From NCBI GenBank assembly GCA_963923225.1, contig CAWUOA010000001.1:1-44861 (forward strand): DNA of 44,861 bases, read 5' to 3'. The notes under the pieces are model-generated. The model searched no databases and was not told where the DNA came from. It saw only the letters and a program-made list of their open reading frames with translations. Each line of letters begins with the position of its first letter. The first letter of the stretch is position 1. Below, in pieces: positions 13,971 through 43,708 of the stretch. A program made the position numbers and the translations under genes. This DNA is from an uncultured Planctomycetaceae bacterium (GTDB lineage Bacteria > Planctomycetota > Planctomycetia > Pirellulales > UBA1268).

Positions 13971-14209
13971 GACGTTGCTGGTCCGGGCGGGGTGCGTCTC
14001 GGGGAGGATCTGCGGCCGGAAGCCCGCTGGAAGAGGGCCGGTCGGCGCCCTTGTCGGCAGGAGGGATGGCTTGCCGGTGGAGATCGCGACCACCCCCGCG
14101 CCCGGAGGCGGCCACGTCGCCCGTGCCACTCGATCGTATCGTCAAACCGGTCGAACCCGTACCTGCCGCCTCCGATCGGTCGCGTCCCCAGCCCCGTCGG
14201 GCGTCCGAT

Positions 14210-21570: not shown

Positions 21571-21704
21571 GGACGATGGCCAAAGCCACTCCGACGGCGC
21601 CGCCCCGTTCGGCGCAACTCCAATCTTATCAGACACTTCCATACATCTCGGGGAGCAATCTCACTTGCCACCCACGGGAACGGAGTCCGCGCGGAGGCTT
21701 TCCG

Positions 21705-22265: not shown

Positions 22266-22338
22266 TCGTGTCCCCGGGCCGCGTCACGGCGCGGCGCGGC
22301 GATATCTCCGCCCCCGGCGGGGAGGCGGGTGCCACCCC

Positions 22339-24081
22339 ATGAAGACGATCGCGAAACTCTGGGCCATGCTCGAGCCCGCGGAGAAGGTCTCCGCCGCGGG
22401 GCTCCTCGTGTGGATGCTGATCAGCATGCTGCTGGAGATGGTCGGCCTCGGCCTGGTCATACCCGCCCTGACGCTGATGGCCGGCGGCAGCGATTCCGGG
22501 ATGCTTCGCCACCTGCCGCCGTCGCTGCAGTGGATCGGCGGCGTCGATCGCTCCACGTTGCTCTTCTGGGGGCTCGGCGCGCTGCTCCTGCTCTACCTGG
22601 TCAAGGCCGCGTTCGTCCTGTTCGCCGTCTGGAGACAGCTCAAGTTCATCGAGCGACTGCAGAATCGCGTCGCGGAGCGGTTGTTCACCGTCTATTTGGG
22701 TCAGCCCTGGACCTTCCATCTCCAGCGCAATTCCGCCTCCCTGATTCGCGTCATCAACGACGTCACGCCGATGGCGGGCACGGTCACGTTCCTCCTCGGG
22801 GCGCTTGCGGAATCACTCGCCGTGGTGGGCATCATGGCGACGCTCCTGTGGTTCGAACCGGTCGGCGCCCTGGTGGTGGGCGCGCTGGCGACGGCCGCCA
22901 CGTTCGTCCTCGACCGTGTCACGCGAAAGCGACTGGTCCGCTGGGGGGGCATCGCCCAGCAGCATCACACCCAGAGTTCCAAACACATGCTGCAGGGACT
23001 CAACGGCGTGAAGGACGTCATCGTCGCCGGTGTCGAGAAGGGGTTCATCGAGCCGTTCGTCGCCAACCGCTCGCGGTACGTCCAGATTCTCACCCGCCAG
23101 AACTTCATCGGGGCGATTCCGCGGATTTGGTACGAGATTCTCGCCATCGGATCGCTCTGCGTGCTCACCCTGGTGCTTCACGCGCAGGGCCTCGGCCCGC
23201 AGGAGATGATCCCCACGCTCGGGCTGTTCGCCGCGGCGTCCTTCAAGATGCTCCCCTCGGTCAATCGACTCGCCCAGGCGACCCAGGCGATGCGTTTCGG
23301 AAAGGCGCTGATCGACGAGATCCACTCCGAACTCCAACTCTCCGCCCGGCCGATTCCGGAGTGTTCATCCGCGGCGCCGATGCGGTTCGAGGACACGATC
23401 GCGGTCGAGTCCGTCACCAGTCGTTATCCCGGCGCCGATCGCAACGCCCTCGAGAACGTCTCGTTCACGATTCCGCAGGGCGCCTCGGTCGGAATCGTCG
23501 GGGGGAGCGGCGCTGGGAAGAGCACCCTCGTGGACGTCATCCTCGGCCTGATCGCGCCGCAGGAAGGACGCGTGACGGTGGACGGGGTCGACATCGCGAC
23601 CGACGTGCGGGGCTGGCAGAGACTCGTCGGTTACGTCCCCCAGTCGATCTACCTCTGCGACGATTCGCTGCGGCGGAACGTGGCCTTCGGAGTACCCGAG
23701 GATCGCTTCGACCAGGCGGCGTTCGACCGAGCGATCAAGGCGGCACGCCTCGACGATTTCATGGCGACCCTTCCCGAAGGCGAGCACACGATGGTCGGCG
23801 AGAGGGGCGTGCGGCTTTCCGGGGGGCAGCGGCAGCGGATCGGCATCGCGAGGGCCCTGTACCACGACCCCCCCGTGCTCGTTCTCGACGAGGCGACCAG
23901 CGCCCTCGACACCGACACCGAGCGGGACGTGATGCACGCGGTCAATGCCCTCCATGGCCAGAAGACGCTGATCATCATCGCCCACCGCCTGACCACGGTC
24001 GCCAACTGTGACAGGGTGTACCGATTCGAACACGGCCGATTGATCGCTGCCGGTACGTTTTCCGAGGTCTGCGCCGGATGA
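22339..24081 (+). CDS. fused TMD-NBD ABC exporter (MsbA/PglK-like half transporter)
   Basis: 580 aa. Six predicted N-terminal TM helices. Walker A GGSGAGKST, signature LSGGQRQR, Walker B VLVLDEATSALD, H-loop IIAHR. Confidence 0.92.
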   Translation: MKTIAKLWAMLEPAEKVSAAGLLVWMLISMLLEMVGLGLVIPALTLMAGGSDSGMLRHLPPSLQWIGGVDRSTLLFWGLGALLLLYLVKAAFVLFAVWRQLKFIERLQNRVAERLFTVYLGQPWTFHLQRNSASLIRVINDVTPMAGTVTFLLGALAESLAVVGIMATLLWFEPVGALVVGALATAATFVLDRVTRKRLVRWGGIAQQHHTQSSKHMLQGLNGVKDVIVAGVEKGFIEPFVANRSRYVQILTRQNFIGAIPRIWYEILAIGSLCVLTLVLHAQGLGPQEMIPTLGLFAAASFKMLPSVNRLAQATQAMRFGKALIDEIHSELQLSARPIPECSSAAPMRFEDTIAVESVTSRYPGADRNALENVSFTIPQGASVGIVGGSGAGKSTLVDVILGLIAPQEGRVTVDGVDIATDVRGWQRLVGYVPQSIYLCDDSLRRNVAFGVPEDRFDQAAFDRAIKAARLDDFMATLPEGEHTMVGERGVRLSGGQRQRIGIARALYHDPPVLVLDEATSALDTDTERDVMHAVNALHGQKTLIIIAHRLTTVANCDRVYRFEHGRLIAAGTFSEVCAG

Positions 24082-24147
24082 CCTCCACGTTCCTCGGCGA
24101 AGACGCCGGCGGGGGACGGCTCCTTCCTCCATGTCGTTTCGGCGTGC

Positions 24148-25731
24148 ATGCACCCGACGACAACCACTGCTGAGAATCCCATGTCGACAGCCAGCGTGTT
24201 CGCCCATCCGGGCGTCCCCTACCCCCCTGGGGTGGCCGTGGGCGAGATGACGTCGCCGACGCGGGCCCCCCTCAACGCCGCCCGCATCGCGAAGGACGCC
24301 GCCCTCACCCTGGCGCTCGTCCTTCTCAACCTCGGCGGCATTCCCGGCTCCTCGATCTTCTTCGCGATCCTGACGGTGATGGTGTTCTGGAAGCCTTCAG
24401 CCGCCTACAAGGCGGTCCTCATCAGCGCCCTGGGCCTGATCCTCAACGAAGCCTTCGTACCCAAGACGGTCGTCTGGACCGTGGCGCGACTCGTCCTGCC
24501 GATGCTCGCCTGTGCACGCTTTCTGATCGATCTTGCCGCCACGCGCGGCGGCGGGGCCGGTGGCATGAAAGGCACCTACGCGACGCTCATGGTGTACGTC
24601 TTCACCATGGCGGCCTGCAGTTTCGCGAGCGGATGGTACACCCACATCGCGCTGCTCAAGCTCTTCAACTTCTGGATTCTCATGACCATGGTGTTCGCCG
24701 GAACGGCCGTCTTGCGCCGCACCAAGGTCGATCTCAGCGAATGGGTGGTGTCACAGATCGTCGCGACCGCGGTCGTCGGCGTCGCCGCCGTGGCGACCGG
24801 CCAGAGCCGCAACTTCCTCGTCTACCGTCTGCGCGACACCGACATCGCGATTTCGGATTCGCTCTTCAACGGCGCGTTCCTGCACCCCAACGCCCACGCC
24901 GCCTACGCCTCGTTGTTCGTGATCTTTCTGGTGAGCATCTACCTTTTCTCGCACTACCGCCAGCGGTTGCTCACGCTCCCGCTGATCGCGACTTGGTTGA
25001 TCTTCATGGTCTATTCGCAATCGCGGACGTCGCTGTTCGCGACGGCGGTTCCCCTCCTCGTCGTCCTGCCTTTCGAAGCCAGGAAAGTGGTTCGTGACGG
25101 AAGGCTGTTCAAGCCCCACGTCTCTCGCGCCACGCTCGCGGCTGCGGCGATGGTGATGGCCTGCGGACTGCTGATCCTCGACGTCGCGGCGGATCGCGTG
25201 GTGACGAAGCAGGCGGTCATGTTCCTCCACAAATGGGACCAGACGGAGACCACCGAGCTCAGCACCGAGACGATGCTCAGTTCACGGCAGGGAAAAATCG
25301 ACGAATCGATGGCCAACTTTCGCGAGAACCCCTGGCACGGAATCGGTTTCGGCGTGGCGAAGAACGACTTTTTCGTACAGGGGGCGACGTTGTTCACGGC
25401 GCCGGCGGAGAAGGGATTCCTCATTTCCGCGGTGCTGGAGGAGGGGGGAATCTTCGGAGCGGCTGCGTTCGTCCTGTTCCTGCTGACGATGGTCGTGAGC
25501 TTGGTGCGGTCACACAACGTTCCGGCGCTGCTCACGCTGGCATGCATGATCGTTTCGAACTTCGGCGAGGTGACGCTGTTCGCCCCCGGCGGTTCCGGCA
25601 CCTTTCTTTGGATGATGTTCGGACTGGCGGTCATTCTCGGTGACCATTGCTGGCAGAAGCCGCTGCCGCCGCGGACCGCCTCCGCCCCCGGCGGAATGCG
25701 TGCGGCCATCGCCCCGAACATGGCGGCTTGA
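24148..25731 (+). CDS. polytopic O-antigen ligase / Wzy-family (Wzy_C-like) membrane protein
   Basis: 527 aa with at least 10 hydrophobic segments and a large loop region (SRQGKIDESMANFRENPWHGIGFGV), typical of WaaL/Wzy/PglL-type proteins. ATG 24181 is an alternative start. Confidence 0.7.
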   Translation: MHPTTTTAENPMSTASVFAHPGVPYPPGVAVGEMTSPTRAPLNAARIAKDAALTLALVLLNLGGIPGSSIFFAILTVMVFWKPSAAYKAVLISALGLILNEAFVPKTVVWTVARLVLPMLACARFLIDLAATRGGGAGGMKGTYATLMVYVFTMAACSFASGWYTHIALLKLFNFWILMTMVFAGTAVLRRTKVDLSEWVVSQIVATAVVGVAAVATGQSRNFLVYRLRDTDIAISDSLFNGAFLHPNAHAAYASLFVIFLVSIYLFSHYRQRLLTLPLIATWLIFMVYSQSRTSLFATAVPLLVVLPFEARKVVRDGRLFKPHVSRATLAAAAMVMACGLLILDVAADRVVTKQAVMFLHKWDQTETTELSTETMLSSRQGKIDESMANFRENPWHGIGFGVAKNDFFVQGATLFTAPAEKGFLISAVLEEGGIFGAAAFVLFLLTMVVSLVRSHNVPALLTLACMIVSNFGEVTLFAPGGSGTFLWMMFGLAVILGDHCWQKPLPPRTASAPGGMRAAIAPNMAA

Positions 25732-25759
25732 CGGCTGGCACGGGTTGCAAGTGCACACC

Positions 25760-26758
25760 ATGTCACACACGACGGAAGACGCCTCCCGCCATGGGGGAGG
25801 CCAGGGACACATCGCCGTTCTTGTCCTCTGCTTCAACGACTCGAAATGGCTCCATCGATGCCTGACGAGCCTCTTGGCGACGAAGGACGAGCACTTTTCC
25901 GTGTACGTCATCGACAATGCGTCGGTCGACGGGAGCGTGGATTTCGTCACGTCGAACTTCCCCCAGGTGCGGGTGGTGAGGAACTCGCGCAACCTCGGGT
26001 TCGCCGCCGGCAACAACGAGGGAATCCGCGTCGCCGTGGAAGACGGGGCCGATTTTCTCGTCCTCCTCAACACCGACACCTGGGTGGAGGAGAACTGGCT
26101 CACGGAACTACGGAAACCGTTCGCCGCGGACCCGTCGATCGGTGTCGTCACCGCGATGATCGAGAACTACGACAACGACCGCTTCGACAAGAATTTCTCG
26201 CAGATCCTGGCCGCCACGCCGGAGTTCATCCAGGACGCCTGGGATGGACGGGTCAAGCCCTGGTACCACACCGACACGGGATCCGGCGCGGCGCTGATGG
26301 CTCGACGGTCGTTCTACGAGGACGTCGGCGTCATCGATCCGGTGTTCTTCATGTACTTCGAGGAGATCGATCTGATCCGCAGGGGCCGCTACCTGGGGTA
26401 CAAGGCCGCGTTCAGCACGACGGGGGTGATCCACCACCACAACCACCTCGAAACGCCGACCGCTGGAAGGCCGACGAAGGCGCGTTTCGAACGTGGCTAC
26501 ATGATCTTCACCCTCAAGAACCAGTTCGAACCCCTCGCGAAGTGCATCATCAAGTTCCTGCTCGAAGTCGTGTCCAGACCGGTGGGTGCGATCCTCAAGG
26601 GACAATGGAAGCGCACGTTGACGCTGCTCGGCACCGGCGCCGAGCTCCTCGTCCGCAGCCCGGCGATCCTCTATCGAAGGCATCTGGAGATGCACTCGCC
26701 CTCCCGGTTGCCGGAAATGCGCTGGCTGCGGCCTGGAACGGGGCGGACCCGTGACTGA
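25760..26758 (+). CDS. family-2 glycosyltransferase
   Basis: ATG 25760. AVLVLCFND...VIDNASVDGS...NLGFAAGNNEG...DFLVLLNTD (DxD) is the GT-A GT2 signature. Confidence 0.88.
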   Translation: MSHTTEDASRHGGGQGHIAVLVLCFNDSKWLHRCLTSLLATKDEHFSVYVIDNASVDGSVDFVTSNFPQVRVVRNSRNLGFAAGNNEGIRVAVEDGADFLVLLNTDTWVEENWLTELRKPFAADPSIGVVTAMIENYDNDRFDKNFSQILAATPEFIQDAWDGRVKPWYHTDTGSGAALMARRSFYEDVGVIDPVFFMYFEEIDLIRRGRYLGYKAAFSTTGVIHHHNHLETPTAGRPTKARFERGYMIFTLKNQFEPLAKCIIKFLLEVVSRPVGAILKGQWKRTLTLLGTGAELLVRSPAILYRRHLEMHSPSRLPEMRWLRPGTGRTRD

Positions 26759-31369: not shown

Positions 31370-32594
31370 ACGGGGGACACGACCGCGGATCCTGGTTTTC
31401 GCCACCCACTACCTCCCCGCGTGCAAGGCCGGAGGACCGGTCCAGTCGATCCACAACCTCGTCGAGACGCTCGGCGACGAGTTCGACTTCCACGTGGTCA
31501 CGTCGGATCGCGATCTCGGCGATTCTTCTCCGTACTCCGACGTGCCTCTCGATCGCTGGACCGAGGTGGGAAAGGCACGCGTCTTCTACGGGACGCGCCG
31601 TGCGCTCGGCCTCTCCGGACTCTCGCGATTCTTCCGGGACATCCGCCCCGACGTCGTCTATCTGAACAGCTACTTCAGCCGGACCTTCTCCATCCTGCCT
31701 CTCCTGGCGAGACGAGCGGGGTTCGAGGGAACCCGTTGTGGCTGGGTGATCGCCCCACGCGGAGAGTTTTCCGCCGGTGCCCTGGCGATCAAGTCACGAC
31801 GCAAGCACGCCTTCGGACGTTTCGCCGATGCGTTCGGACTCCACGCAGGACTTTTCTGGCAGGGCTGCAGCACGCTCGAGGCGGACGACATCCGGCGTCA
31901 ACGCTCCGGCCGCGGCGAGTCGATCGTCGTCGCACCGAACCTCACCCAGCAGGTCGGCGGATACCTGCCGCCGACGTCGCTGGCCACTCCCCCGCCGCCG
32001 CTGGAGATCTGTTTTCTTTCCCGCGTCTCCCCCAAGAAGAACCTCGACTTCGCGATCGAAGCACTGGCGAGGGTTCGCGTTCCGGTGCGCTTCCACGTGT
32101 ACGGACCGAAGGAAGACGCCCGCTATGCCGCCTCCTGCGAACTTTCCGCTTCACGTTGCCCGGGGAACGTGGAGGTCGTGTGGCACGGCGAGATTCCCCA
32201 TGACCGCGTGCAGTCCACCTTGCGCCAGCACCATTTGTTCCTGTTCCCGACCCGGGGCGAGAATTTCGGCCACGTGATCTTCGAGTCTTTCGCCGCCGGG
32301 GTGCCGGCGCTGATCAGCGACCGCACGCCGTGGCTGGACCTGGATGATCGACGGGTCGGTTGGGTGCGGTCACTCGACGACGTCCAGGGCTTCGTCGACG
32401 TGATCGAATCCTGTGCCGGCATGTCCGGACCCGATCGGGAAGCGATGTCCCGGGCGGCCCACGATTACGCCGGGGCCTTCGTCCGGAACTCCACCGCCGT
32501 CACCGCCACCCGCTCCCTCTTTCGGGAGGCGGCGACGACGGGCCGCCGAAGCCCCACTCCCACGTCCCCTCAACCCACCGCCCACTCCCGATGA
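31359..32594 (+). CDS. GT1/GT4-family glycosyltransferase
   Basis: 411 aa. RILVFATHYLPACKAGGPVQS..., ICFLSRVSPKKNLD..., FPTRGENFGHVIFESFAAGVPALI (EX7E). It overlaps the upstream gene by 11 nt. Confidence 0.85.
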   Translation: MADERGTRPRILVFATHYLPACKAGGPVQSIHNLVETLGDEFDFHVVTSDRDLGDSSPYSDVPLDRWTEVGKARVFYGTRRALGLSGLSRFFRDIRPDVVYLNSYFSRTFSILPLLARRAGFEGTRCGWVIAPRGEFSAGALAIKSRRKHAFGRFADAFGLHAGLFWQGCSTLEADDIRRQRSGRGESIVVAPNLTQQVGGYLPPTSLATPPPPLEICFLSRVSPKKNLDFAIEALARVRVPVRFHVYGPKEDARYAASCELSASRCPGNVEVVWHGEIPHDRVQSTLRQHHLFLFPTRGENFGHVIFESFAAGVPALISDRTPWLDLDDRRVGWVRSLDDVQGFVDVIESCAGMSGPDREAMSRAAHDYAGAFVRNSTAVTATRSLFREAATTGRRSPTPTSPQPTAHSR

Positions 32595-34747
32595 AACAAA
32601 TCATCCAGTCCTATCGCACCGGCGAACTGTGGCTCGCGGACGTCCCCGGCCCGGCGCTCAAGTCGGGGGGGGTGGTCGTGCAGACCGCCGCCAGCCTCGT
32701 GTCGGCCGGAACCGAGCGCATGATCGTGGAGCTCGCGAAGAAGTCGCTGATCGGCAAGGCGCAGGCGCGGCCGGATCTGGTGCGGAAGGTGATCGACAAG
32801 ATCCGCACCGAAGGCCTCGCGCCGACGATGACGAAGGTCTTCGCCAAGCTCGACACGCCGATCCCGCTCGGCTATTCCTGCGCGGGGACCGTGGTGGAGG
32901 CGGGCGAGCGCTCGGGATTCCGGGCGGGGGACCGTGTCGCCTGCGCCGGCGCCGGGTACGCCACGCACGCCGAGTTCAACTTCGTCCCGCGGAATCTCTG
33001 CGTCCGCCTCCCCGACCGGGTGAGCTTCGCCGACGCCAGCTACGCGACGCTCGGCTCGATCGCGCTGCAGGGGGTGCGGCAGGCCGATCTGCGACTGGGC
33101 GAAAGCGTCGCCGTGATCGGCCTGGGGCTCCTCGGGCTGCTCACCGTGCAACTGCTCAAGGCCTCCGGATGCCGGGTGATCGGCGCCGACCCCTCCCCGG
33201 CCCGCTGCGAGCTGGCACGGCGTCTCGGCGCCGACGAGACGGTGGACGGCGGCCTGGCCGAGGCGGCGGCGTCTTTCACCGACGGCCACGGCGTCGACGC
33301 CGTGATCGTGGCGGCGGCGACGAAGTCGAACGAACCGATCGAGGTCGCGGCCGAGGCCTGCCGGCCGAAGGGACGCGTGGTGGTGGTGGGGATGGTGGGC
33401 ATGGACGTCCCGCGTGATCCCTTCTACCGCAAGGAGCTCGACCTTCGTCTCAGCATGTCGTACGGGCCGGGCCGGTACGACCCCGCCTACGAGGAAGGGG
33501 GGCACGACTATCCCTACGCCTACGTCCGCTGGACGGAGCAACGGAACATCGGCGCGTTCGTCGATCTGGTGGCGGCCGGGGCCGTCACCCCCGCCGCCCT
33601 CACCACCCATCACTTCGCCGTCGACGACGCACTCCGCGCCTACGATCTCCTCGAGGGGAAGACGAAGGAGCCCTACCTCGGCATCGTCATCGACTATCCC
33701 CAGCCGGCGGCGCCGGCTCCTCCCCGGCGCCTCGTGGAACTCCCCTCGACGCGGCCCGCGGCGGCCGGCAAGCTCGGCGTGGGCTTCATCGGAGCCGGCA
33801 ACTTCGCCAAGAGCGTGCTGCTCCCGGCGCTGGCACGGCAGGCCGACGTCGTCCTCACCGGCCTCTGCACCGCCACCGGCATGAGCGCCGTCGAGACCGG
33901 AAAGCGGCACGGTTTCCGCTTCGCCACCACGAGCGTCGACGAGCTCCTGGCCGACGCACAGACGCAGGTGGTGTTCGTGGCGACGCAGCACCATACCCAC
34001 GCCGGGTTCGTCCTCCGGGCTCTCGAGGCGGGCAAGCACGTGTTCGTGGAGAAGCCCCTGTGCATGTCGCCGGAGGAGCTCGACCGGATCGAGGAGGCGG
34101 TGCGTTCGTTGCCGCGGCCCGGTCCCTGCCTGACCGTCGGCTTCAATCGACGCTTCTCCCCCCACGCCCGTGCCATCCGCGCGGCCTTCGCCGGCCGTTC
34201 CACCCCGCTGGTGGTCAACTACCGGGTCAACGCAGGGATGGCGCCGAGCGATTCCTGGGTCCAGGACCCGGAGCGTGGCGGCGGCCGGGTGATCGGCGAG
34301 GTGTGCCACTTCGTCGACCTGGCCGAGTACCTCGTCGGGAGCGAGCCTGTCGCCGTGTCGGCCTCGTCGGTGCGGACGGCGGACCGACGCGCCGTGTCGG
34401 AGGATTCCCTCGTCGCCACCCTCTGCTATGCCGACGGGTCGCTGGCCACGATCCAGTACCTGGCCCACGGCTCGGCCCAGGTGCCCAAGGAGCGTGGCGA
34501 GGTGTGCGCCGACGGCGTGACCGCGGTCCTCGACAACTACCGCGCCACGACGTTCCACGGCGGGGGGCACGCGGCGGTGAAGGGCTCGCAGGACAAGGGC
34601 TTCGACGCCGAGATCGCCGCCCTCCTGGGAGCGGTGCGGGGGGGTGGAGAATGGCCGATCCCGTTCGACTCCCTGTCGCGAACCACCCGCGCTACCTTCG
34701 GGATCCTCGAGTCGCTCCGAGACGGCCGGTCGGTCGCGATTCGATGA
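32591..34747 (+). CDS. bi-domain oxidoreductase: an N-terminal MDR/zinc-ADH-like domain fused to a C-terminal Gfo/Idh/MocA domain
   Basis: ATG 32591 (ATGA overlap). The N-terminal half has the GroES-like/Rossmann pattern (VAVIGLGLLGLLTVQLLKASG). The C-terminal half has GVGFIGAGNFAKS and HVFVEKPL (EKP motif). Confidence 0.85.
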   Translation: MKQIIQSYRTGELWLADVPGPALKSGGVVVQTAASLVSAGTERMIVELAKKSLIGKAQARPDLVRKVIDKIRTEGLAPTMTKVFAKLDTPIPLGYSCAGTVVEAGERSGFRAGDRVACAGAGYATHAEFNFVPRNLCVRLPDRVSFADASYATLGSIALQGVRQADLRLGESVAVIGLGLLGLLTVQLLKASGCRVIGADPSPARCELARRLGADETVDGGLAEAAASFTDGHGVDAVIVAAATKSNEPIEVAAEACRPKGRVVVVGMVGMDVPRDPFYRKELDLRLSMSYGPGRYDPAYEEGGHDYPYAYVRWTEQRNIGAFVDLVAAGAVTPAALTTHHFAVDDALRAYDLLEGKTKEPYLGIVIDYPQPAAPAPPRRLVELPSTRPAAAGKLGVGFIGAGNFAKSVLLPALARQADVVLTGLCTATGMSAVETGKRHGFRFATTSVDELLADAQTQVVFVATQHHTHAGFVLRALEAGKHVFVEKPLCMSPEELDRIEEAVRSLPRPGPCLTVGFNRRFSPHARAIRAAFAGRSTPLVVNYRVNAGMAPSDSWVQDPERGGGRVIGEVCHFVDLAEYLVGSEPVAVSASSVRTADRRAVSEDSLVATLCYADGSLATIQYLAHGSAQVPKERGEVCADGVTAVLDNYRATTFHGGGHAAVKGSQDKGFDAEIAALLGAVRGGGEWPIPFDSLSRTTRATFGILESLRDGRSVAIR

Positions 34748-36447
34748 AGGTCGGCAGGCTCCTGCGCACGCTCCGCCACCTCCGCGGCGGACAGTTGCTC
34801 GCCCAGTTCCTCGAGCGCGCCCGGCCCGGTGCCCGTGATCCCTCCTGGGTGGCCGGCCGCCGTCCCCCGCCCGTGCCGTCGCTGCGTCTGCAGCCGGTCG
34901 CCGACTGGCTCCTCCCCGATCCGCAGGCCAATACCGCGGAAGCCCTGCGGGAGGGACGCTTCACCTTCGTCGGCGACGAGCGCCGGATCGGCTGGCCACC
35001 CGACTGGAACCCCGCCGGGGCGCCGTTGCTTTGGCGCTACAACCTCCATTATCTCGAGTGGATTCACGCCCTCCCGCCCCGGGAACGGCTGGAGGCGGCC
35101 CTCGACTGGGAGCGGCGGCACCCGCCGGCCGCCGGGGCCGTCGGCTGGGCCCCCTACCCGACGTCGCTGCGTCTGCCGACGCTCTGCCTCCTCGCGGCGG
35201 CCTCCCGGGACGTCGCGGCGCTGTGGCCCACGATCTGGCGGCAGGCGGAGCACCTCTCCCGGCGGCTCGAGTACCACCTCCTCGGCAACCATCTCCTCGA
35301 GAACGGCCTGGCGCTCGCTTTCACCGGCGCCTGCTTCGACGGCCCCGACGCGCGGCGTTGGCTGGCCACCGGCCTGGGCATCCTCCGCGAACAATTGCCC
35401 GAGCAGGTCCTCGCCGACGGCATGCATTTCGAGCGCTCGCCGATGTACCAGATCCGGCTCACGCACGCCCTGGCGCTGCTGGCCAACACCGGCCACCCCG
35501 AGGCGCGGGCCCTCGTCGCCGAACCGCTGGCGCGCATGCGTTCGGCGCTCATGGCGACCTGCCACCCCGACGGCGGGATCGCGCTGTTCAACGACGCCGC
35601 GTTCGGCATCTACCCCGAGCCGGCGGCCGTGTCGGCCTTCGTCTCGGCGACGCTCGGGACCGCCGCCGACCCCGAGCCCCCCGCGTCGCTCCCCGAGGCG
35701 GGCTACCACGTCGGCCGCGGGCCGGCCGGCGACATGGTGATCTGCGACTCCGGACCGCTCGGCCCCGACTACCTTCCCGGCCACGCCCACGGCGACATCT
35801 TCTCGTACGAACTCTCCCTGGGCGGCCAGCGCGTCGTCGTCGATGCCGGGACGCACGACTACGTCCCGTCCGAGATGCGCCGCTACTGCCGTTCGACCGC
35901 GGCCCACAACACGCTGACGGTCGGGGACGCGGACCAGGCGGAGTTCTGGGGGGCGTTCCGCGTCGGCCGTCGCGGCAGGCCGCACGACGTCCGCCGCGTG
36001 CCCGAGGCCGACGGCTTCGCCCTCTCCGGGTGGCACGACGGATTCCGTCACCTTCCTGGCAGGCCGGTCCACCGTCGCACCTTCCGCTGGCACTCCGCGG
36101 GTACGCTGGCCGTGGTCGATGAAGTGACCTCCGGCGTGGCCGTGACGGCCGCGTCCCGCATCCATCTCCACCCGGCATGCACGATCGAGGGCGTCGACGG
36201 GATGATCCTCCGGGCGGTCCGCGACGGCGTGCCCTTCACCGTGACGGTCACGGAGGGACCGGCGCCGCGGATCGAAGAGGGCTGGTACTGCCCCCGGTTC
36301 GGCACACGCCAGCGCAATTCCGTCGTGGTGCTCGAATCGACCGGCACCGTCGTCCGCTTCGGCTACACGATCTCCCGCATCCATGACGCCGACCGCCCCC
36401 GTGACGCCGGATCCCCACGCCCGAAGGGACGAACCGATGACGCGTGA
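34744..36447 (+). CDS. heparinase II/III-like (polysaccharide-lyase fold) protein
   Basis: ATG 34744 (ATGA overlap). The N-terminal alpha/alpha-toroid-like region (NLHYLEWI, HLLGNHLLENG) and the C-terminal GHAHGDIFSYELSLGGQRVVVDAGT...AHNT motif are typical of the heparinase II/III family. Confidence 0.8.
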   Translation: MKVGRLLRTLRHLRGGQLLAQFLERARPGARDPSWVAGRRPPPVPSLRLQPVADWLLPDPQANTAEALREGRFTFVGDERRIGWPPDWNPAGAPLLWRYNLHYLEWIHALPPRERLEAALDWERRHPPAAGAVGWAPYPTSLRLPTLCLLAAASRDVAALWPTIWRQAEHLSRRLEYHLLGNHLLENGLALAFTGACFDGPDARRWLATGLGILREQLPEQVLADGMHFERSPMYQIRLTHALALLANTGHPEARALVAEPLARMRSALMATCHPDGGIALFNDAAFGIYPEPAAVSAFVSATLGTAADPEPPASLPEAGYHVGRGPAGDMVICDSGPLGPDYLPGHAHGDIFSYELSLGGQRVVVDAGTHDYVPSEMRRYCRSTAAHNTLTVGDADQAEFWGAFRVGRRGRPHDVRRVPEADGFALSGWHDGFRHLPGRPVHRRTFRWHSAGTLAVVDEVTSGVAVTAASRIHLHPACTIEGVDGMILRAVRDGVPFTVTVTEGPAPRIEEGWYCPRFGTRQRNSVVVLESTGTVVRFGYTISRIHDADRPRDAGSPRPKGRTDDA

Positions 36448-37739: not shown

Positions 37740-38960
37740 ATGGCCCCGCCCGTATCCGGAAAAGTGTGTGTCGTCGGTCTCGGCTACGTCGGACTGCCGA
37801 CGGCGGCAGTGCTGGCCTCTCGCGGTTACGACGTCCATGGCGTCGACGTCAACCCGAAGGCCGTGGAGACGATCAATTCCGGCAAGGCCCACATCGTCGA
37901 GCCCGATCTCGATCTGCTCGTGCGCGCCGCCGTCCAAACCGGCAAGCTCACGGCCCACCCGGCGCCGGCCCCCGCCGACGTGTTCATGATCTGCGTCCCG
38001 ACGCCGTTCAAGGGGGACCACGAGCCCGACCTCTCGTACGTCGAGTCGGCGACGCGGCTGATCTGCCCGCACCTGAAACCGGGCAACCTCGTGGTGCTCG
38101 AGTCGACGAGCCCCCCCGGCACGACGGAACTCATGGCGCGGATCGTCGCGAGTGAGGCGGGGCTCGACTGCACGCAGGTGCACTTCGCGCACGCACCGGA
38201 GAGGGTGCTGCCCGGCAAGGTACTCCGCGAGATCGTGGAGAACGACCGGATCATCGGCGGCCTCGACGACGCCGCCACGCAGGCCTGCGTCGCCTTCTAC
38301 TCGACCTTCGTGTCGGGCGAGATCCACACCACCGGCGCCCGTACCGCCGAGACGGCGAAGCTCGTGGAGAACGCCTACCGGGACGTCAACATCGCCTTCG
38401 CCAACGAGCTCTCGCTCCTGGCCGACGAGCTCTCGCTCGACGTCTGGGAGCTGATCCGCCTGGCCAACCGCCACCCGCGCGTGAACATCCTCTCCCCGGG
38501 GTGCGGCGTGGGGGGCCACTGCATCGCGGTCGACCCTTGGTTCCTCGTCCACGCGGCTCCGGCGGTCACACGGCTGATCCGCACCGGTCGCGAGGTCAAC
38601 GACTTCAAGCCGGAATGGGTCGTCGAAAGGGTGAAGAAGAAGGCGGCACGGTTCAAGCATCCGAAGGTGGCTTGCCTGGGCCTGGCCTACAAGCCGGACA
38701 TCGACGACCTCCGCGAGTCCCCGGCGGTGCACGTCGTGGAGCGGCTGCTCGCCGACAGGGAACTGGGTGCCGACGTCGCCGTCGTCGAGCCCTACGTCTC
38801 CTCCCACCCGCGTTTTCCGCTGGTGCCGCTCGACGAGGCACTCGCCGATGCCGACATCATCCTCGTCCTGTGCGCCCACAGGCAATTCCGGAAGATCGCC
38901 CCCTCCCTGCTCGCCGAGAAAATCGTGATCGACACGTGCGGCGCGCTCCGCACGAACTGA
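37740..38960 (+). CDS. wecC: UDP-N-acetyl-D-mannosamine dehydrogenase (nucleotide-sugar 6-dehydrogenase family)
   Basis: VCVVGLGYVGLPTA (NAD-binding), a catalytic Cys region (GCGVGGHCIAVDP), about 406 aa, and the nearby wecB all favour WecC/Cap5O over Ugd. The specificity is an inference. Confidence 0.78.
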   Translation: MAPPVSGKVCVVGLGYVGLPTAAVLASRGYDVHGVDVNPKAVETINSGKAHIVEPDLDLLVRAAVQTGKLTAHPAPAPADVFMICVPTPFKGDHEPDLSYVESATRLICPHLKPGNLVVLESTSPPGTTELMARIVASEAGLDCTQVHFAHAPERVLPGKVLREIVENDRIIGGLDDAATQACVAFYSTFVSGEIHTTGARTAETAKLVENAYRDVNIAFANELSLLADELSLDVWELIRLANRHPRVNILSPGCGVGGHCIAVDPWFLVHAAPAVTRLIRTGREVNDFKPEWVVERVKKKAARFKHPKVACLGLAYKPDIDDLRESPAVHVVERLLADRELGADVAVVEPYVSSHPRFPLVPLDEALADADIILVLCAHRQFRKIAPSLLAEKIVIDTCGALRTN

Positions 38961-38967
38961 ACCCACA

Positions 38968-39990
38968 ATGGCAGTCCGCATCCACTTCGCGGGTCTGGTG
39001 CCGGGACAACCGCTCGTGCACGTCGCCTGGGCGGCATTCGCCGGGGACGAGCGACTGTCGTCGTCGACCGTCATGCACTTCGGCCGCGAACTGGCGGACG
39101 TGTTCGATCGTCACTGGTCCGTGGCCCCGACCGTCGCCGACTGCGACGTCGTCGTCTATCCCCACAGCTACGTCGACGGAGCCGAGACGGCGGCCGTCGC
39201 CGAGACGGCGCGGAGGGCCGGCAAACCATGCCTGTTCTTCAGCCAGGACGAGCGCATTCCCCCGTCGTCGTTGAGCTACGGGGCCTTGTACCGCAGTTCC
39301 ATCTTCGAGCGACGCCCCAACGAACGCTGCCATCCCGTCTTCATCCTCGACGCCATTGAGGAGACTCACGGCACGTTTCCGGAGACGCTTCCCAAGGAGA
39401 GCGCACCCCGGATCGGATTCTGCGGCTACGTGGGAACGCCGCTGGGAAGGCTCGCCTTGCGAATGCTCGGCGCGAAACAGAAGGTGGACGGACTCTTTCT
39501 GAGAGCCCGCGTCCTGTCCGCCCTGCGCGAAGACCCCCGCCTTCGCTGTGAGTTCGTCGCCCGGGCCAGCTATCTCGGCCGTGCGCCGTTGTCGGCGTTC
39601 GACAAGTCGCATCCGCTCACGGCGGAGCGGGACGTTTTCCTCCACAATCTCTTCACCTGTCCCTACGCGCTGGCGATGCGAGGGAAGGGCAACCACTCGG
39701 TCCGCTTCTACGAGATCCTCTCGGCGGGGCGGATTCCGCTGTTCTTCAACACGCGATGCGTGCTGCCGCTCGAGAACGAGATCGACTGGCGCGATCTGGT
39801 CGCCTGGGTCGAGGAGAGCGAACTGCCGGTGATCGGGGACCGTATCCTCCGCTTCCATGAGTCTCTCGATCCCGAGGCCTTCGAGGAGCGACAGCGAAGG
39901 ATCCGGCAGGTGTGGCAGACCCGGCTGATGCCGGAACCGTTCTTCGTGCACGTCCTCGACACCGTCGCCAGAGGCGAACCGGCCCCCTGA
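38968..39990 (+). CDS. exostosin-like (GT47-type) glycosyltransferase
   Basis: 340 aa. The C-terminal region FCGYVG..., YALAMRGKGNHSVRFYEILSAGRIPLFFNT...PLENEIDWRDLVAWVEE resembles the exostosin-family signature. Confidence 0.6.
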   Translation: MAVRIHFAGLVPGQPLVHVAWAAFAGDERLSSSTVMHFGRELADVFDRHWSVAPTVADCDVVVYPHSYVDGAETAAVAETARRAGKPCLFFSQDERIPPSSLSYGALYRSSIFERRPNERCHPVFILDAIEETHGTFPETLPKESAPRIGFCGYVGTPLGRLALRMLGAKQKVDGLFLRARVLSALREDPRLRCEFVARASYLGRAPLSAFDKSHPLTAERDVFLHNLFTCPYALAMRGKGNHSVRFYEILSAGRIPLFFNTRCVLPLENEIDWRDLVAWVEESELPVIGDRILRFHESLDPEAFEERQRRIRQVWQTRLMPEPFFVHVLDTVARGEPAP

Positions 39991-40005: not shown

Positions 40006-41160
40006 ATGACCAGAGCACGTATCGCCGTCTTCGTCGGCACCCGGCCCGAAGCCATCAAAATGGCGCCGGTCATCAAGGCGCTGGAGAAGGCCGAGGGCCT
40101 CGAACCGGTCGTCGTTTCCACCGGCCAACACCGGGAGATGCTCCGTCAGGTGGTGGATCTGTTCGAACTTCCGATCCACCACACGCTCGACGTGATGCAG
40201 CCCGACCAGACGCTCGCGGGTCTCTCGTCGCGTCTGCTCGCCGCCATCGACGGGTCGCTCGAGGCGATCCGCCCCGAGATGGCCTTGGTCCAGGGAGACA
40301 CGACGACGGTCCTCATGGCGGCGCTGGCGTGCTATTACCGCCGCATCCCGATCGGCCACGTCGAAGCGGGGCTGCGTACCGGCGACATCCATTCGCCGTT
40401 CCCCGAGGAAGCGAACCGGAAGTTGGCGTCGCCCCTGGTCACGCTGCACTTCGCCCCGACCCAGGGGGCCGCTGACAATCTCCTCCGCGAGGGGATCCCC
40501 CCCTCCACGATCCACGTCACCGGCAACACGGTGATCGACGCGCTGTTCATGGAAGTCGAGCGACAGAGGCGACCGGAGGTCCGGGACGCGATTTCCGGCC
40601 GTCTCGACGCGCTCCTCGGATCGGATCGGCGGGATCGGCCGTACGTGCTCGTCACCGGCCACCGTCGCGAGAACTTCGGCGGCGGCTTCGACGAGATCTG
40701 CGACGCGCTCGCCCTCTTGGCGGACCGATTCGCCGACCACGACTTCATCTATCCGGTCCACCTCAACCCGAACGTCCAGAAGCCGGTCTACCAGCGTCTC
40801 GCCGGTCGGCCGAACATCCGGCTCGTCGCTCCGCAGGCCTACGCCGAGTTCGTGGCGCTGATGCACGCCAGCCGCCTGATCCTCACCGATTCGGGGGGCG
40901 TGCAGGAGGAGGCTCCGAGCCTGGGCAAGCCCGTACTCGTCATGCGGGACACCACCGAACGGCCGGAGGCGGTCGCGGCGGGCACCGTGGAGTTGGTCGG
41001 CGCCCGTGCGGACAGGATCGTCGAGCGGGTCACGGCGCTCCTCGGCGACGCCGATCTCTACAAGCGGATGAGCGAGGCGATCAATCCGTACGGCGACGGC
41101 CACGCGGCGGGGCGAATCGTCGCGGCCGTGCGTCGTGCCGTCATCGGAGCCGGAACATGA
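40006..41160 (+). CDS. wecB: non-hydrolysing UDP-N-acetylglucosamine 2-epimerase
   Basis: IAVFVGTRPEAIKMAPV..., TGQHREML, VQGDTTT, HVEAGLRT, TDSGGVQEEAPSLGKPVLVMRDTTERPE are near-canonical WecB/MnaA motifs. Confidence 0.92.
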   Translation: MTRARIAVFVGTRPEAIKMAPVIKALEKAEGLEPVVVSTGQHREMLRQVVDLFELPIHHTLDVMQPDQTLAGLSSRLLAAIDGSLEAIRPEMALVQGDTTTVLMAALACYYRRIPIGHVEAGLRTGDIHSPFPEEANRKLASPLVTLHFAPTQGAADNLLREGIPPSTIHVTGNTVIDALFMEVERQRRPEVRDAISGRLDALLGSDRRDRPYVLVTGHRRENFGGGFDEICDALALLADRFADHDFIYPVHLNPNVQKPVYQRLAGRPNIRLVAPQAYAEFVALMHASRLILTDSGGVQEEAPSLGKPVLVMRDTTERPEAVAAGTVELVGARADRIVERVTALLGDADLYKRMSEAINPYGDGHAAGRIVAAVRRAVIGAGT

Positions 41161-42320
41161 CGACGAAGCGGGTCATGGTCGCGGGATGCTTCGACTTGCT
41201 GCACGCCAGCCACGTCGTCTTCCTGAAGAAGGCCGCCACGCTCGGCGATCTGTACGTGTCGCTCGGCGCCGACCAGTCCATCGTGCGCCAGAAGAACAAG
41301 TCCCCGACCTACAACCAAGAGGAGCGGAAGTACCTCCTCGAGAACTTGCGCTGCGTGACGTGGGTGGGAATCGTCACCGATCCCGGACCGACCGGCTTCG
41401 AGGAGCACATCGCGGAAATCCGACCGGACATCTTCGTGATCAACGAGGACGGCGACACTCCCGAGAAGCGCGCCGTCTGCCAGCGATTCGGCGTCGAGTA
41501 CCGCGTCTTTCCCCGGGACCACTTCGATCCCTCGGCCCCGACCTCGACGACGCAGATTTCGCAGGGCGATTTTCTCCCCACGCGCGTCAGTCTGTGCAGT
41601 GGATTCATGGACAATCCCGCATTCAACGGGAGCACCTCGGGGGGCGTCGGCAGTCTGGTGGTGTTGCCGATCGAGCCCATCCCGGGGATGCACGCCCGTT
41701 CCGGGATGGCCACGAGCACGATCAAGACCGTCCGCAAGTATTTCGGCTGCAGATTGCCCACGATCTACGACGTCGACCGCCTCGCCGAGATCATCTTCTG
41801 CCTGGAGAATCCGCCCCACAAGCGGGGCTACATCTCCGGAACGCTCGATGCCCGCGGCATCCTCGGGCACGGCGCGAGCATGTTCACCTACAGGGCGACC
41901 AAGTACTTTCCCCACGAGATCGAGACGCTCCGCGACGAACCCACCCTCTCCTGGCTGGAGCGACACCTCTATCTCAAGCATTCCTTCGACCGCCCCGAAG
42001 ACTGCATCGTCAGCGTGAGACACGACCATCCGGAGTTCCAGCATCATTGCGACACGATGCAGGAAGCGAGCCTGCAGTGCTGGGCCGCCATCCGGGAGCG
42101 GGATCTCGACTCGCTCTCCGACGCGATCACCAGATCCCATCTTTCGCAAAGCGCCGTCGTCCAGAACCATTGCCCTCCACGCCTCCGCGAGTTCATCGCA
42201 CAGGAGCGTCGGAGAGGGGCGAACGTCATGGGAGCGGGCGGTGGGGGATACGTGGTCTTCGCGGCCGAGGAGATACCCGCCGACGCCATACCCATCCGCA
42301 TCAAACGTGCCGACTTCTGA
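41157..42320 (+). CDS. fusion protein: N-terminal cytidylyltransferase-like nucleotidyltransferase + C-terminal GHMP-kinase-like domain
   Basis: ATGA overlap with wecB. N-terminal domain: VMVAGCFDLLHASH (HxGH-type motif reads HASH at 41202-41213) and TSTTQI (ISTT-like). C-terminal domain: RSGMATST (degenerate GHMP motif II) and GAGGGGY (motif III, 42230-42250). Confidence 0.8.
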   Translation: MTTKRVMVAGCFDLLHASHVVFLKKAATLGDLYVSLGADQSIVRQKNKSPTYNQEERKYLLENLRCVTWVGIVTDPGPTGFEEHIAEIRPDIFVINEDGDTPEKRAVCQRFGVEYRVFPRDHFDPSAPTSTTQISQGDFLPTRVSLCSGFMDNPAFNGSTSGGVGSLVVLPIEPIPGMHARSGMATSTIKTVRKYFGCRLPTIYDVDRLAEIIFCLENPPHKRGYISGTLDARGILGHGASMFTYRATKYFPHEIETLRDEPTLSWLERHLYLKHSFDRPEDCIVSVRHDHPEFQHHCDTMQEASLQCWAAIRERDLDSLSDAITRSHLSQSAVVQNHCPPRLREFIAQERRRGANVMGAGGGGYVVFAAEEIPADAIPIRIKRADF

Positions 42321-42508
42321 CCTTTCCGGATCCGCGGTCATGGATCCTCGTCATGCCCCGGCACGGTCGGCATCCTCCCGACCGGCCGTACGATCGGACC
42401 GGATTCCAGACGCCACCAATCGACTCTGTCGCCGCGACGACGGCAGGTGGACATCCCGGCGAGAGGACCGACCGTCGTAGCCGCGTCATTCGCCCCCCAT
42501 CACCATCC

Positions 42509-43708
42509 ATGACCATCCGCGTAAACTCCGTCATCTGTGGAATATTCCACTACCGCAAGTACATCGGCGACTACAGTCGCAGCGGGCAACTCCAGGCCTT
42601 CTATTACTCCCACCGTCGCTCCACCACCGCCGAGACGCTGGGCATCGTGTCGGGCAAGGCGATCAACTTGTGGCTCAAGGAGTACCTGCTGGCCTCCGCG
42701 TACAGACTGCCGGCCCAGTGGCGGGCTCACGATCGGATCGGGCCGACGGTCCACCGATGGTGGGAGCGACAGGTCTTGCGACGCTGGATCCCCTGTGACC
42801 TGCTCCACCTCCACCTCCTCGGCACCGCGAATCGGGTTCTCGACCGCGCCCGCTCGGAAGGCGCCGTGACGATGGGCGAACCCGTGATGTGCCATCCGGT
42901 CACGCTGGACCGAATCCTCGCCGAGGAGCACGATCTTCTCGGCATCCCCCGGCAGCGCCTCGATCTTCTTTTCGCGTCACTGGTGGAGGAGATCCCGAAG
43001 TGTGACTATCTCGTGGCCGGATCACGGGCCGTGAGGGATTCCTACGTCGCGAGGGGATATCCCTCCGATCGCATCAGGGCGATTTCTTACGGGGTCGACG
43101 CGACACGTTTCACGCCACTTTCCGAGGCGGAGAAGGCCGCCTGTGCCGACGGCAAGTTTCGGGTGATCTGCGTCGCTCAGATCACCCCGCGGAAGGGCAT
43201 TCACTACCTGCTCGAGGCGTGGGCGCGACTCGGCCTGCCCGCGAACGAATCCGAGCTCCTCCTCGTCGGCCCGGTCGCGGAGTCACTGGAGCCGGTGATG
43301 CGCCGATACGCCGGTAGTTACACCCACCTGCCGCACGTGCCCCACGAACGACTGAGGTTCTACTACGGCAAGTCCAGCGTCTTCGTCTTGCCCAGTGTCG
43401 AGGATGGATTCGGCCTCGTCACGGCGGAGGCGATGGCCTGCGGGCTTCCCGTGGTGGTCAGCGACGCCGCCGGCAGCGCCGATCTCGTCGAGCACGGCGT
43501 CAGCGGCTTCGTCGTGCCTTCCCGGTCCGCGGAGGCGATCATGGAAGCCCTCGACACCCTCTATCGTGACCCCGAACGCCGTGTCGCCATGGGCCGACGG
43601 AGCCTCGCCCTCTGCGGGGCGCACGATTGGTCAGCCTTCGCATCGCAACTCGCCGCCTACCATCGCGATGCGGTGGAAAGTCGCACCGGAGGGGTCGCCG
43701 CCCGATGA
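42509..43708 (+). CDS. GT1/GT4-family glycosyltransferase
   Basis: ATG 42509; the track shows it only as the tail of the run-on ORF 41135-43708. FRVICVAQITPRKGIHYLL..., VLPSVEDGFGLVTAEAMACGLPVVVSD (EX7E). Confidence 0.85.
   Translation: MTIRVNSVICGIFHYRKYIGDYSRSGQLQAFYYSHRRSTTAETLGIVSGKAINLWLKEYLLASAYRLPAQWRAHDRIGPTVHRWWERQVLRRWIPCDLLHLHLLGTANRVLDRARSEGAVTMGEPVMCHPVTLDRILAEEHDLLGIPRQRLDLLFASLVEEIPKCDYLVAGSRAVRDSYVARGYPSDRIRAISYGVDATRFTPLSEAEKAACADGKFRVICVAQITPRKGIHYLLEAWARLGLPANESELLLVGPVAESLEPVMRRYAGSYTHLPHVPHERLRFYYGKSSVFVLPSVEDGFGLVTAEAMACGLPVVVSDAAGSADLVEHGVSGFVVPSRSAEAIMEALDTLYRDPERRVAMGRRSLALCGAHDWSAFASQLAAYHRDAVESRTGGVAAR

Follow-up and report, generated by a model that had tools for sequence, protein, structure and literature searches.

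The stretch of DNA analysed here, hereafter the window, comprises 44,861 nucleotides of contig CAWUOA010000001.1 from an uncultured planctomycete. A cluster of polysaccharide genes runs on its + strand from about 21.5 kb to past the window end. Within this cluster lies a gene whose single open reading frame (ORF) joins an N-terminal nucleotidyltransferase domain of the HxGH (cytidylyltransferase-like) type to a C-terminal GHMP kinase domain related to the fucokinase of Fkp (Table 1). The gene belongs to clade A, a divergent planctomycete clade of a large family whose main clade, clade B, often lies beside genes of fucose metabolism. Its product is probably a bifunctional sugar activator.

The fusion gene

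The original prediction, made from the letters of the DNA, described one ORF with the nucleotidyltransferase placed before the GHMP kinase and coupled to the upstream wecB by an ATGA overlap. Both domain assignments are borne out by hidden Markov models and predicted structure, as the prediction had proposed to check, and by profile-to-PDB search. The overlap is present in the sequence and recurs, again with 4 nt, in the syntenic locus L097. The motifs HASH, TSTT, RSGMATST and GAGGGGY were all confirmed in the sequence. An AlphaFold2 (AF2) model, made with 24 homologues as input, has a mean predicted local distance difference test score (pLDDT) of 87.5 and consists of two domains with a short linker of low confidence between them.

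An artefactual join of two genes by frameshift or misassembly, the event which the prediction itself had named as its refutation, was rejected and can be regarded as practically impossible. Thousands of full-length homologues have the same domain order and length, a second contig that was assembled independently (the longer sister contig L001) encodes an identical 387-aa protein, and AF2 models both domains with confidence. The GC content is 63-65% across 41.1-43.5 kb vs approximately 70% for the whole window. This dip spans the fusion gene and the glycosyltransferase gene downstream of it, and may reflect horizontal acquisition of that part of the cluster. A promoter and terminator scan of 42200-42600 found no element.

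Table 1. Coordinates and supporting evidence for the fusion gene, its domains and motifs, and the adjacent genes (GT, glycosyltransferase family)
Feature	Position in window	Strand	Evidence
Whole gene, HxGH transferase + fucokinase-like fusion, clade A	41157..42320	+	387-aa ORF, full-length homologues, AF2 model
ATGA start/stop overlap with wecB (translational coupling)	41157..41160	+	ATG of fusion gene overlaps TGA of wecB
HxGH-type (cytidylyltransferase-like) nucleotidyltransferase domain, aa 8-134	41178..41558	+	PF01467, 39.6 bits, cut-off 21
HASH variant of HxGH motif (H16, A17, S18, H19)	41202..41213	+	read from sequence
T-S-T-T motif, aa 129-132, counterpart of (I)STT phosphate-binding motif	41541..41552	+	alignment of family
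Inter-domain linker, aa 125-140	41529..41576	+	aa 125-135 are the sole segment with pLDDT <50 in the AF2 model
Compact GHMP kinase domain, aa 141-387, homologous to Fkp fucokinase domain	41577..42317	+	profile-to-PDB, Foldseek, PF08544
Motif I / sugar-binding loop PTRVSLCSGFMDNP	41577..41618	+	aligned to Fkp 590-603
GHMP motif II variant RSGMATST, ATP phosphate loop	41697..41720	+	249-sequence alignment
GTLD with D231 as predicted general base, L230 replacing C4-OH-binding Gln	41838..41849	+	alignment to Fkp D762/Q761
GHMP motif III GAGGGGY	42231..42251	+	invariant or nearly so in 249 sequences; identical in Fkp
wecB, non-hydrolysing UDP-GlcNAc 2-epimerase, upstream coupled gene	40006..41160	+	TIGR00236, 463.6 bits, cut-off 210
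GT47/exostosin-like glycosyltransferase	38968..39990	+	PF03016, 26.8 bits, below cut-off; kept in L097
wecC, UDP-ManNAc dehydrogenase	37740..38960	+	NF008286, 531.5 bits, cut-off 459
GT4 glycosyltransferase directly downstream	42509..43708	+	PF00534, 109.9 bits; gene call on L001

The family and its two clades

A word-indexed protein search found 1,995 relatives, and the best 120 were nearly all about 380 aa long with 98-100% query cover. With a Verrucomicrobiota member as the query of a second search, 7,311 or more proteins passed E<=1e-30, and when 1.84 billion representatives at 50% identity were scanned exhaustively, 67 clusters reached the same threshold. The search of other genomes that the original prediction had suggested therefore finds the architecture in thousands of proteins, in the same order and at the same length. 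The protein does pair other folds than HldE and Fkp, and in another order, but the architecture is less novel than the prediction implied, being shared by more than 7,000 proteins. Source annotations call these proteins only "cytidyltransferase-like protein" or "adenylyltransferase/cytidyltransferase family protein". NCBIfam and Pfam hold no curated model specific to the family, and the NCBIfam match is only to the generic domain TIGR00125.

In a neighbour-joining tree, clade A is monophyletic with a long stem, and at 50% clustering it is a single full-length representative. Sequence identity is 52-81% within clade A, and 35-41% between clade A and clade B over 98-100% of the query (E ~1e-70). 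The named members of clade A are Planctomycetia or Planctomycetota metagenome-assembled genomes (MAGs), and the closest genome match is a Pirellulales MAG. Clade B includes Bacteroidota, Chloroflexota, Verrucomicrobiota, Latescibacterota, and others. The window itself is placed in Planctomycetota by a pair of planctomycete hallmark genes at 10120-14129 on the - strand, which encode a DUF1552 protein (HXXSHH, 326 bits) and an 825-aa protein of DUF1592 type. The latter combines DUF1592, 1588, 1585, 1587, and 1595 with a planctomycete cytochrome c domain (PSCyt) and CBM60.

Conservation was counted in an alignment of 249 full-length members, 59 from clade A and 190 from clade B. The catalytic positions are common to the window protein and clade B, and the clades show the following fixed or near-fixed differences. 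Position 17 is Ser in clade B (189/190) and Ala or Pro in clade A, position 18 is Gly in all 190 clade-B sequences vs Ser in 57 of the 59 from clade A, and position 48 changes from Arg (183/190) to Lys (57/59). In the kinase half, positions 147-148 are A-G in clade B and C-S in clade A, Trp150 (190/190) is replaced by Phe (58/59), and Gln230 (190/190) by Leu (59/59). The resulting motif sets are HSGH, RSTT, AGGWLDQP, and GSQD for clade B, and HASH, TSTT, CSGFMDNP, and GTLD for the window clade.

The nucleotidyltransferase half

The best sequence matches of the N-terminal domain in PDB include ethanolamine-phosphate and glycerol-3-phosphate cytidylyltransferases. Its best NCBIfam match is rfaE_dom_II (65.5 bits, below the 181.5 cut-off). 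Foldseek assigned a Rossmann-like fold and returned the Fom1 CyTase (5x3d), HldC (5xf2), and TagD (2b7l/1coz) with target-normalised template-modelling scores (TMt) of 0.72-0.82. Overall, the domain is closest to RfaE/HldE domain II, HldC, and TagD.

The canonical H-x-G-H signature is not matched in the window protein, where both His residues are kept and Gly is replaced by Ser. HASH had been read correctly as a Gly-to-Ser variant; it is in addition the dominant form of clade A, while the rest of the family has the canonical HSGH. The second His (H19) is conserved in 52 of 59 clade-A sequences and is Gln in the other seven, vs His in 190/190 of clade B. These HPSQ/HPGQ variants (P0025, P0026, P0027, P0031, P0032, P0036, and P0041) have an otherwise well conserved N-terminal domain. 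Residues D13, H16, K46, E56, R57, N96, G99, K104, R120, and S130 of the transferase half are invariant in the 249 sequences, and the conserved Lys/Arg of the GCT subfamily are thus present as K46 and R57. The (I)STT motif is likewise recognisable: S130 is invariant, T132 nearly so, and T131 is Thr or Ser throughout.

Position 129, the first of the T-S-T-T motif, is Thr in 59/59 clade-A and Arg in 190/190 clade-B sequences. In Amuc_1591, a more distant relative described below, hhalign puts Val at or next to it, and RfaE domain II carries Cys at the counterpart position. The Arg-to-Thr exchange was considered as a sign of a crippled NTP site and dropped; because Amuc_1591 also lacks Arg there, the change is probably not critical. 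The mean pairwise identity within clade A is 74.6% for the N-terminal domain vs 64.9% for the C-terminal domain, and the former is therefore under purifying selection rather than decaying. The transferase domain also occurs in P0359, a 1232-aa protein of different architecture.

The kinase half

A profile of the C-terminal domain (alignment A2) matched the Fkp fucokinase 9iip in PDB with E 1.7e-15, and the next solved GHMP kinases were heptokinases at 7.7e-7 and worse. The top GHMP match of Foldseek was likewise 9iip (E 2.9e-9), an entry of the Fkp fucokinase part with beta-L-fucose 1-phosphate, and Foldseek recognised the two-lobed GHMP fold of 9iip, 4usk, 1vis, 1s4e, and 3k85, all with probability 1.00. 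GHMP_kinases_C (PF08544) matches aa 311-377 with 23.1 bits (cut-off 21). GHMP_kinases_N (PF00288) gave no match at E<=0.1, and the canonical motif II PxGSGLGSSAA is not matched. The original prediction had called motif II degenerate, a reading that the alignment contradicts. E-R-S-G-M-A-[TS]-S-T is essentially invariant in the 249 members; R181, S182, G183, and S187 are invariant or nearly so, and position 185 is Ala, or Ser in 44/190 clade-B sequences. Since it is conserved throughout, the motif is a family-specific version of motif II and not a degenerate one. The other invariant residues of the kinase half are P141, R143, G149, D152, N218, P220, G228, D231, and Q331. The counterparts of R181 and of GAGGGGY have a single exception each, and E217 is invariant or nearly so.

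The roles of the Fkp residues are known from its structure: R592 stabilises the leaving group, D762 is the general base, W599 stacks on C4-C5-C6 of the sugar, D601 binds O3 and O4, T602 binds O3, and Q761 binds O4 (PMC11982464). In the alignment, R143 corresponds to R592, F150 to W599, D152 to D601, N153 to T602, L230 to Q761, and D231 to D762. E217 is probably the counterpart of Fkp E751, as judged from spacing only. The catalytic Arg592 and Asp762 of Fkp thus have invariant counterparts in R143 and D231. Among the fucose contacts, D601 is kept as D152, and Trp599 and Gln761 are replaced by Phe150 and Leu230.

The kinase domain is also found outside the fusion. Stand-alone domains of about 240 aa, matching aa 140-384, are P0321, P0344, P0349, P0372, P0398, P0400, and P0404, and the compact domain is part of larger proteins of other architecture in P0338 (667 aa) and P0396 (601 aa).

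Comparison with Fkp and HldE

The original prediction compared the protein with activators of the HldE and Fkp type, and the comparison is apt, as the N-terminal domain is nearest to RfaE/HldE domain II and the C-terminal domain to the Fkp fucokinase. Fkp, the L-fucokinase/GDP-L-fucose pyrophosphorylase of Bacteroides fragilis (PDB 9IIP, 9IIT, and 5YYS; PMC11982464), converts a sugar to its 1-phosphate and further to the NDP-sugar on one polypeptide. Its kinase domain is homologous to the C-terminal domain of the window protein, with which it shares PxRxDxxGGW/F-x-D-x-P, the catalytic Arg and Asp, and GAGGGGY. However, Fkp has 949 aa and an N-terminal guanylyltransferase of the GlmU/beta-helix type, whereas the window protein has 387 aa and a transferase of the HxGH Rossmann type, unrelated to that of Fkp; its kinase domain spans about 245 aa vs more than 330 aa in Fkp.

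HldE/RfaE and the separate HldC have the transferase fold of the window N-terminal domain and act on a sugar-1-phosphate, and HldE is likewise bifunctional. Unlike the window protein, HldE has an N-terminal, PfkB-type kinase, so the domain order is reversed, and its pathway needs the phosphatase GmhB between the two steps. The window protein has no Pfam match to a PfkB domain, and the HldE model reaches only 53.8 bits vs a cut-off of 521.

Fucose genes around the main clade

To describe the family context, 80 loci were taken from one-genome-per-species contigs, and 78 of them, mostly from clade B, were analysed by clustering the neighbours within 7 kb; NCBIfam and Pfam served to confirm what the neighbour families are. 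Among the loci analysed, at least 34 carry FucP, FucU, RhaM, GH29, FucI, an FGGY kinase, or a short-chain dehydrogenase/reductase (SDR) of the Gmd/Fcl type within this distance. This number includes L011, a clade-A locus that is counted only for an RmlB-like SDR. About half of the clade-B loci hold genes for fucose uptake, mutarotation, catabolism, or GDP-fucose synthesis.

The most frequent of these neighbours are the L-fucose:H+ symporter FucP (14 loci; 309.7 bits, cut-off 280.4) and the SDR cluster (14 loci), in which only some members are Gmd (579.8 bits, cut-off 415) or Fcl (429.8 bits, below the cut-off of 500) and others are like RmlB or GDP-mannose 3,5-epimerase (GME). A RhaM-type mutarotase is found at 11 loci (107.4 bits, cut-off 23.4), a GH29 alpha-L-fucosidase at seven (305.7 bits, cut-off 25.2), the L-fucose isomerase FucI also at seven (1064 bits, cut-off 775), and the mutarotase FucU at six (194.6 bits, cut-off 141). 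A rhamnulo/fuculokinase-type FGGY kinase is present at six loci; its best match is the rhamnulokinase model (519.5 bits, just below the cut-off of 527.95), and the fuculokinase model gave 131.5 bits vs a cut-off of 470.9. A clear operon at L009/L010 consists of the fusion gene, a major facilitator superfamily transporter, and rhaM. In L058, L059, L070, L018, and L045, the clade-B gene lies directly beside gmd-fcl. A permease, a mutarotase, an anomeric kinase, and a transferase in sequence would follow the logic of a salvage pathway, parallel to that of Fkp. Judging by the literature searched, the strong association of main-clade genes with fucose genes is new.

RhaM is also commonly encoded on the same polypeptide as the fusion. 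PF05336 (RhaM) was present in approximately a quarter of the best matches of the search with the Verrucomicrobiota query, and, in addition to the 34 loci, six target ORFs of 582-609 aa have an N-terminal extension which starts like the Pfam-confirmed RhaM domain of P0093. Fusions of RhaM, HxGH transferase, and kinase of about 580-610 aa include P0093, P0178, P0181, and some 25 more; those with a named source come mostly from Bacteroidota. Those with P numbers were assigned from a precomputed PF05336 match, with the domain of P0093 confirmed by Pfam; those at loci L021, L037, L046, L053, and L068 were judged from ORF length and N-terminal similarity to P0093. Such a protein would carry three consecutive steps of the putative salvage route.

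Two further arrangements were seen. In L035, a Sedimentisphaerales MAG, the genes at +0 to +3 relative to the match comprise two full-length fusion paralogues in tandem, with a GME-like SDR between them and FucP after them. The second paralogue has the motif HAGH, as in Amuc_1591, and the pair hints at two sugar specificities in one operon. In the Chloroflexota loci L025, L077, and L072, an SDR directly downstream (gene +1 or +2) is GME-like with a weak match to GDP-fucose synthase, and may link the family to L-galactose besides L-fucose.

A published relative in Akkermansia

In June 2026, all D-arabinose-resistant suppressors of Akkermansia muciniphila were reported to map to Amuc_1591, which was modelled as an N-terminal adenylyl/cytidylyltransferase with a C-terminal fucokinase-like domain and proposed to be a "fucose-nucleotidyltransferase"; when its function is lost, D-arabinose is no longer toxic, L-fucose likewise relieves the toxicity, and the evidence is genetic (PMC13313206). 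We took its sequence from the supplementary table of that paper. It has the same two domains in the same order as the window protein, and hhalign aligned it to the family over 314 columns spanning both domains (probability 99.8%, E 1.2e-29). BLASTP against the window protein covered only aa 4-156 with 34% identity, so that Amuc_1591 represents a distant lineage of the same architecture. No Akkermansia protein was among the best 120 matches of the search with the Verrucomicrobiota query.

The motifs of Amuc_1591 are HAGH, AGGWLDVP, GWQD, and GGGYGGY. The suppressor mutation G326E appears to fall in the equivalent of GHMP motif III, which fits a requirement for kinase activity. Its gene adjoins murJ and not a polysaccharide cluster. 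Adjacency to murJ was considered as a link between Amuc_1591 and the family and was rejected, as the Verrucomicrobiota loci L036 and L088 lack murJ. Amuc_1591 is the only member for which a fucose link is documented in print, by genetics.

Polysaccharide clusters around clade-A genes

The cluster in the window seems to start at 21576-26754 (+) with a NusG-like gene (possibly of RfaH type) and an ATP-binding cassette (ABC) exporter, followed by two ORFs without a Pfam match (24148-25731 and 25846-26754). Genes for GT4, SDR, GT2, GT4, and GT4 come next, followed by a zinc-alcohol dehydrogenase (ADH)/GFO-IDH-MocA oxidoreductase (GFO) fusion, a heparinase II/III-like protein, GT4, wecC, the GT47-like gene, wecB, the fusion gene, GT4, and GFO. 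The longer sister contig L001 continues with a methyltransferase, rmlC, rmlA, and rmlB. L097, from a 75%-identical relative, has the same order of wecC, the GT47-like gene, wecB, the fusion gene, and GT4. It also keeps the pair at 32591-36447 (+), in which the ADH/GFO fusion has 718 aa; epimerase, lyase, or sugar modification may be the role of this pair. The GT47-like glycosyltransferase is, speculatively, a candidate user of the product.

Every clade-A locus examined sits among polysaccharide genes (GT2/GT4/GT47/GT61, Wzy_C, Poly_export, Bac_transf, and pyruvyl- or acyltransferases). The neighbours are GT61 in some loci, Wzy_C with a hexapeptide transferase and GT2 in another, and Bac_transf with Poly_export and a beta-helix protein in others; SDR, GT2, pyruvyl transferase, and acyltransferases are further examples. 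No partner glycosyltransferase common to all clade-A loci was found; the neighbours vary among GT47-like, GT61, GT2, and GT4. L002, L093, and L011, which belong to one planctomycete lineage, share a conserved block of a 745-aa protein (weak sulfotransferase and GT4 signals), GT61, and the fusion gene, to which only L002 and L093 add a protein of about 400 aa without a Pfam match. BLAST clustering had suggested a tandem paralogue downstream in L002; this was rejected, as direct BLASTP found no similarity, and the signal probably stems from over-long ORF calls.

Proposed function and alternatives

We propose, with a probability of about 0.6, that the window protein is a bifunctional sugar activator of a planctomycete exopolysaccharide or O-antigen-type cluster. 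By homology, the fucokinase-like GHMP domain would bind a free pyranose of the L-fucose type and transfer the gamma-phosphate of ATP to its anomeric hydroxyl, with D231 acting as the general base and R143, the RSGMATST loop, and GAGGGGY holding the phosphates. The HxGH domain would then couple the sugar-1-phosphate to an NTP and release NDP-sugar and pyrophosphate, similar to the reaction of RfaE/HldE domain II with heptose-1-phosphate. The context suggests that a glycosyltransferase of the cluster would use the NDP-sugar. The salvage-type route of the original prediction is in this form supported by the fucose context of clade B and the phenotype of Amuc_1591; its alternative product, an NDP-alditol, is less likely, because the kinase domain is specifically fucokinase-like. 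The replacement of the C4-OH-binding Gln by Leu and of Trp by Phe argues for a sugar that differs from L-fucose at or near C4/C6, and the sugar, and perhaps the nucleotide, of clade A may differ from those of the main clade. That clade A makes an undescribed nucleotide sugar, for example an ADP- or CDP-6-deoxy-L-hexose or a fucose analogue with a different C4, by its HASH/HPSQ transferase is a tentative idea to which we give a small chance.

Several observations weigh against the protein being such a sugar activator. Literature searches found no biochemical characterisation of this architecture for any member. Loss of the HxGH glycine, together with Gln for the second His, would be unusual for an active enzyme of the HxGH superfamily. 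In clade A, other residues take the place of the fucose contacts W599 and Q761, and the NCBIfam Fkp model NF009948 gives 15.7 bits on the window protein (cut-off 721), matching aa 300-380 only; it scores 15.7-19 bits on two clade-A proteins and misses a third, vs 46-55 bits on clade B. Genes for a fucose transporter, mutarotase, or fucosidase were seen neither in the window nor in the other clade-A contexts examined, seven distinct ones, and clade-A loci thus offer no evident source of a free sugar. The window likewise has no GT10/GT11 or other Pfam-recognisable fucosyltransferase and no gmd/fcl.

The alternatives differ mainly in the substrate and in the state of the N-terminal domain. The specificity may be unchanged, in which case the protein would be a compact analogue of Fkp, an L-fucokinase/L-fucose-1-phosphate guanylyltransferase making GDP-beta-L-fucose. 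Full-length homology to clade B (E ~1e-70), the conserved catalytic residues and D152, and a Phe150 that could still stack on the sugar are in its favour, and the adjacency of clade-B genes to gmd-fcl in several loci suggests that the family product is GDP-fucose. Planctomycetes also commonly degrade fucose-rich algal polymers. We nevertheless consider it doubtful for clade A, in view of the fixed pocket differences (Q230L and W150F), the changed HxGH glycine, the long stem between the clades, and the lack of fucose genes in the clade-A contexts examined and of a recognisable fucosyltransferase family in the window. To our knowledge, the characterised HxGH enzymes use ATP or CTP, and we know of no description of GTP use by this fold. 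For this reason, GDP-fucose cannot be assumed as the family product and would be unprecedented for the fold, a point that also counts against our proposal. A non-sugar alcohol or polyol (glycerol, a tetritol or pentitol, or an amino alcohol) could instead be activated to a CDP-alcohol for phosphodiester decoration, in parallel to TagD, LicA/LicC, and ECT/CCT. The ethanolamine-phosphate and glycerol-3-phosphate cytidylyltransferases among the best PDB matches and the altered fucose contacts fit this, but it is unlikely given a specifically fucokinase-like kinase which keeps R143, D231, an aromatic stacking residue, and D152, the Asp for vicinal hydroxyls, and no LicD/TagF-like CDP-alcohol phosphotransferase was seen in the cluster.

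It is improbable, too, that clade-A proteins act as kinases only, with an N-terminal domain reduced to nucleotide binding, regulation, or a scaffold and the sugar-1-phosphate passed to a separate pyrophosphorylase. The replaced HxGH glycine and the Gln in 7/59 sequences point in this direction, and an NTP_transferase (rmlA-like) gene lies a few kb downstream on L001. However, the N-terminal domain is the more conserved half in clade A, D13, H16, K46, R57, and S130 are invariant with T132 nearly so, and the Thr at position 129 is not diagnostic, given the Val of Amuc_1591. Very little speaks for a heptose pathway, in which an HddA/WcbL-like kinase for a heptose phosphate and an HldC/RfaE-II-like adenylyltransferase would make ADP- or GDP-heptose. 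Although rfaE_dom_II is the best NCBIfam match of the N-terminal domain and structural and profile searches also returned the heptokinases WcbL and 3k85, the match to Fkp is better than that to the heptokinases by eight orders of magnitude, gmhA (SIS) and gmhB (HAD) were not found in the window or its extension, and the context of the family points to fucose and not heptose.

Significance

The architecture itself is abundant, and a distant member has already been discussed in print; what is new is a divergent planctomycete clade in which residues of the pocket and of HxGH are changed. Fkp is the standard enzyme for the chemoenzymatic synthesis of GDP-fucose and its analogues. If the proposed function is true at the family level, a compact 380-aa protein would be a non-orthologous replacement of Fkp, with a cytidylyltransferase fold turned to sugar-1-phosphate activation, possibly with GTP. 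Such an enzyme, less than half the size of Fkp and encoded by thousands of bacteria, would make a valuable tool, and it would fill annotation gaps in fucose salvage in Bacteroidota, Chloroflexota, Verrucomicrobiota, and other phyla. Clade A is a natural experiment in which, within polysaccharide clusters, residues of the sugar pocket and of HxGH are changed on a common scaffold, and could show how specificity is set. It could also reveal an unusual sugar of planctomycete envelopes, and if this sugar is undescribed, it would represent a new class of donor for the GT47- and GT61-like transferases of planctomycete surface polysaccharides.

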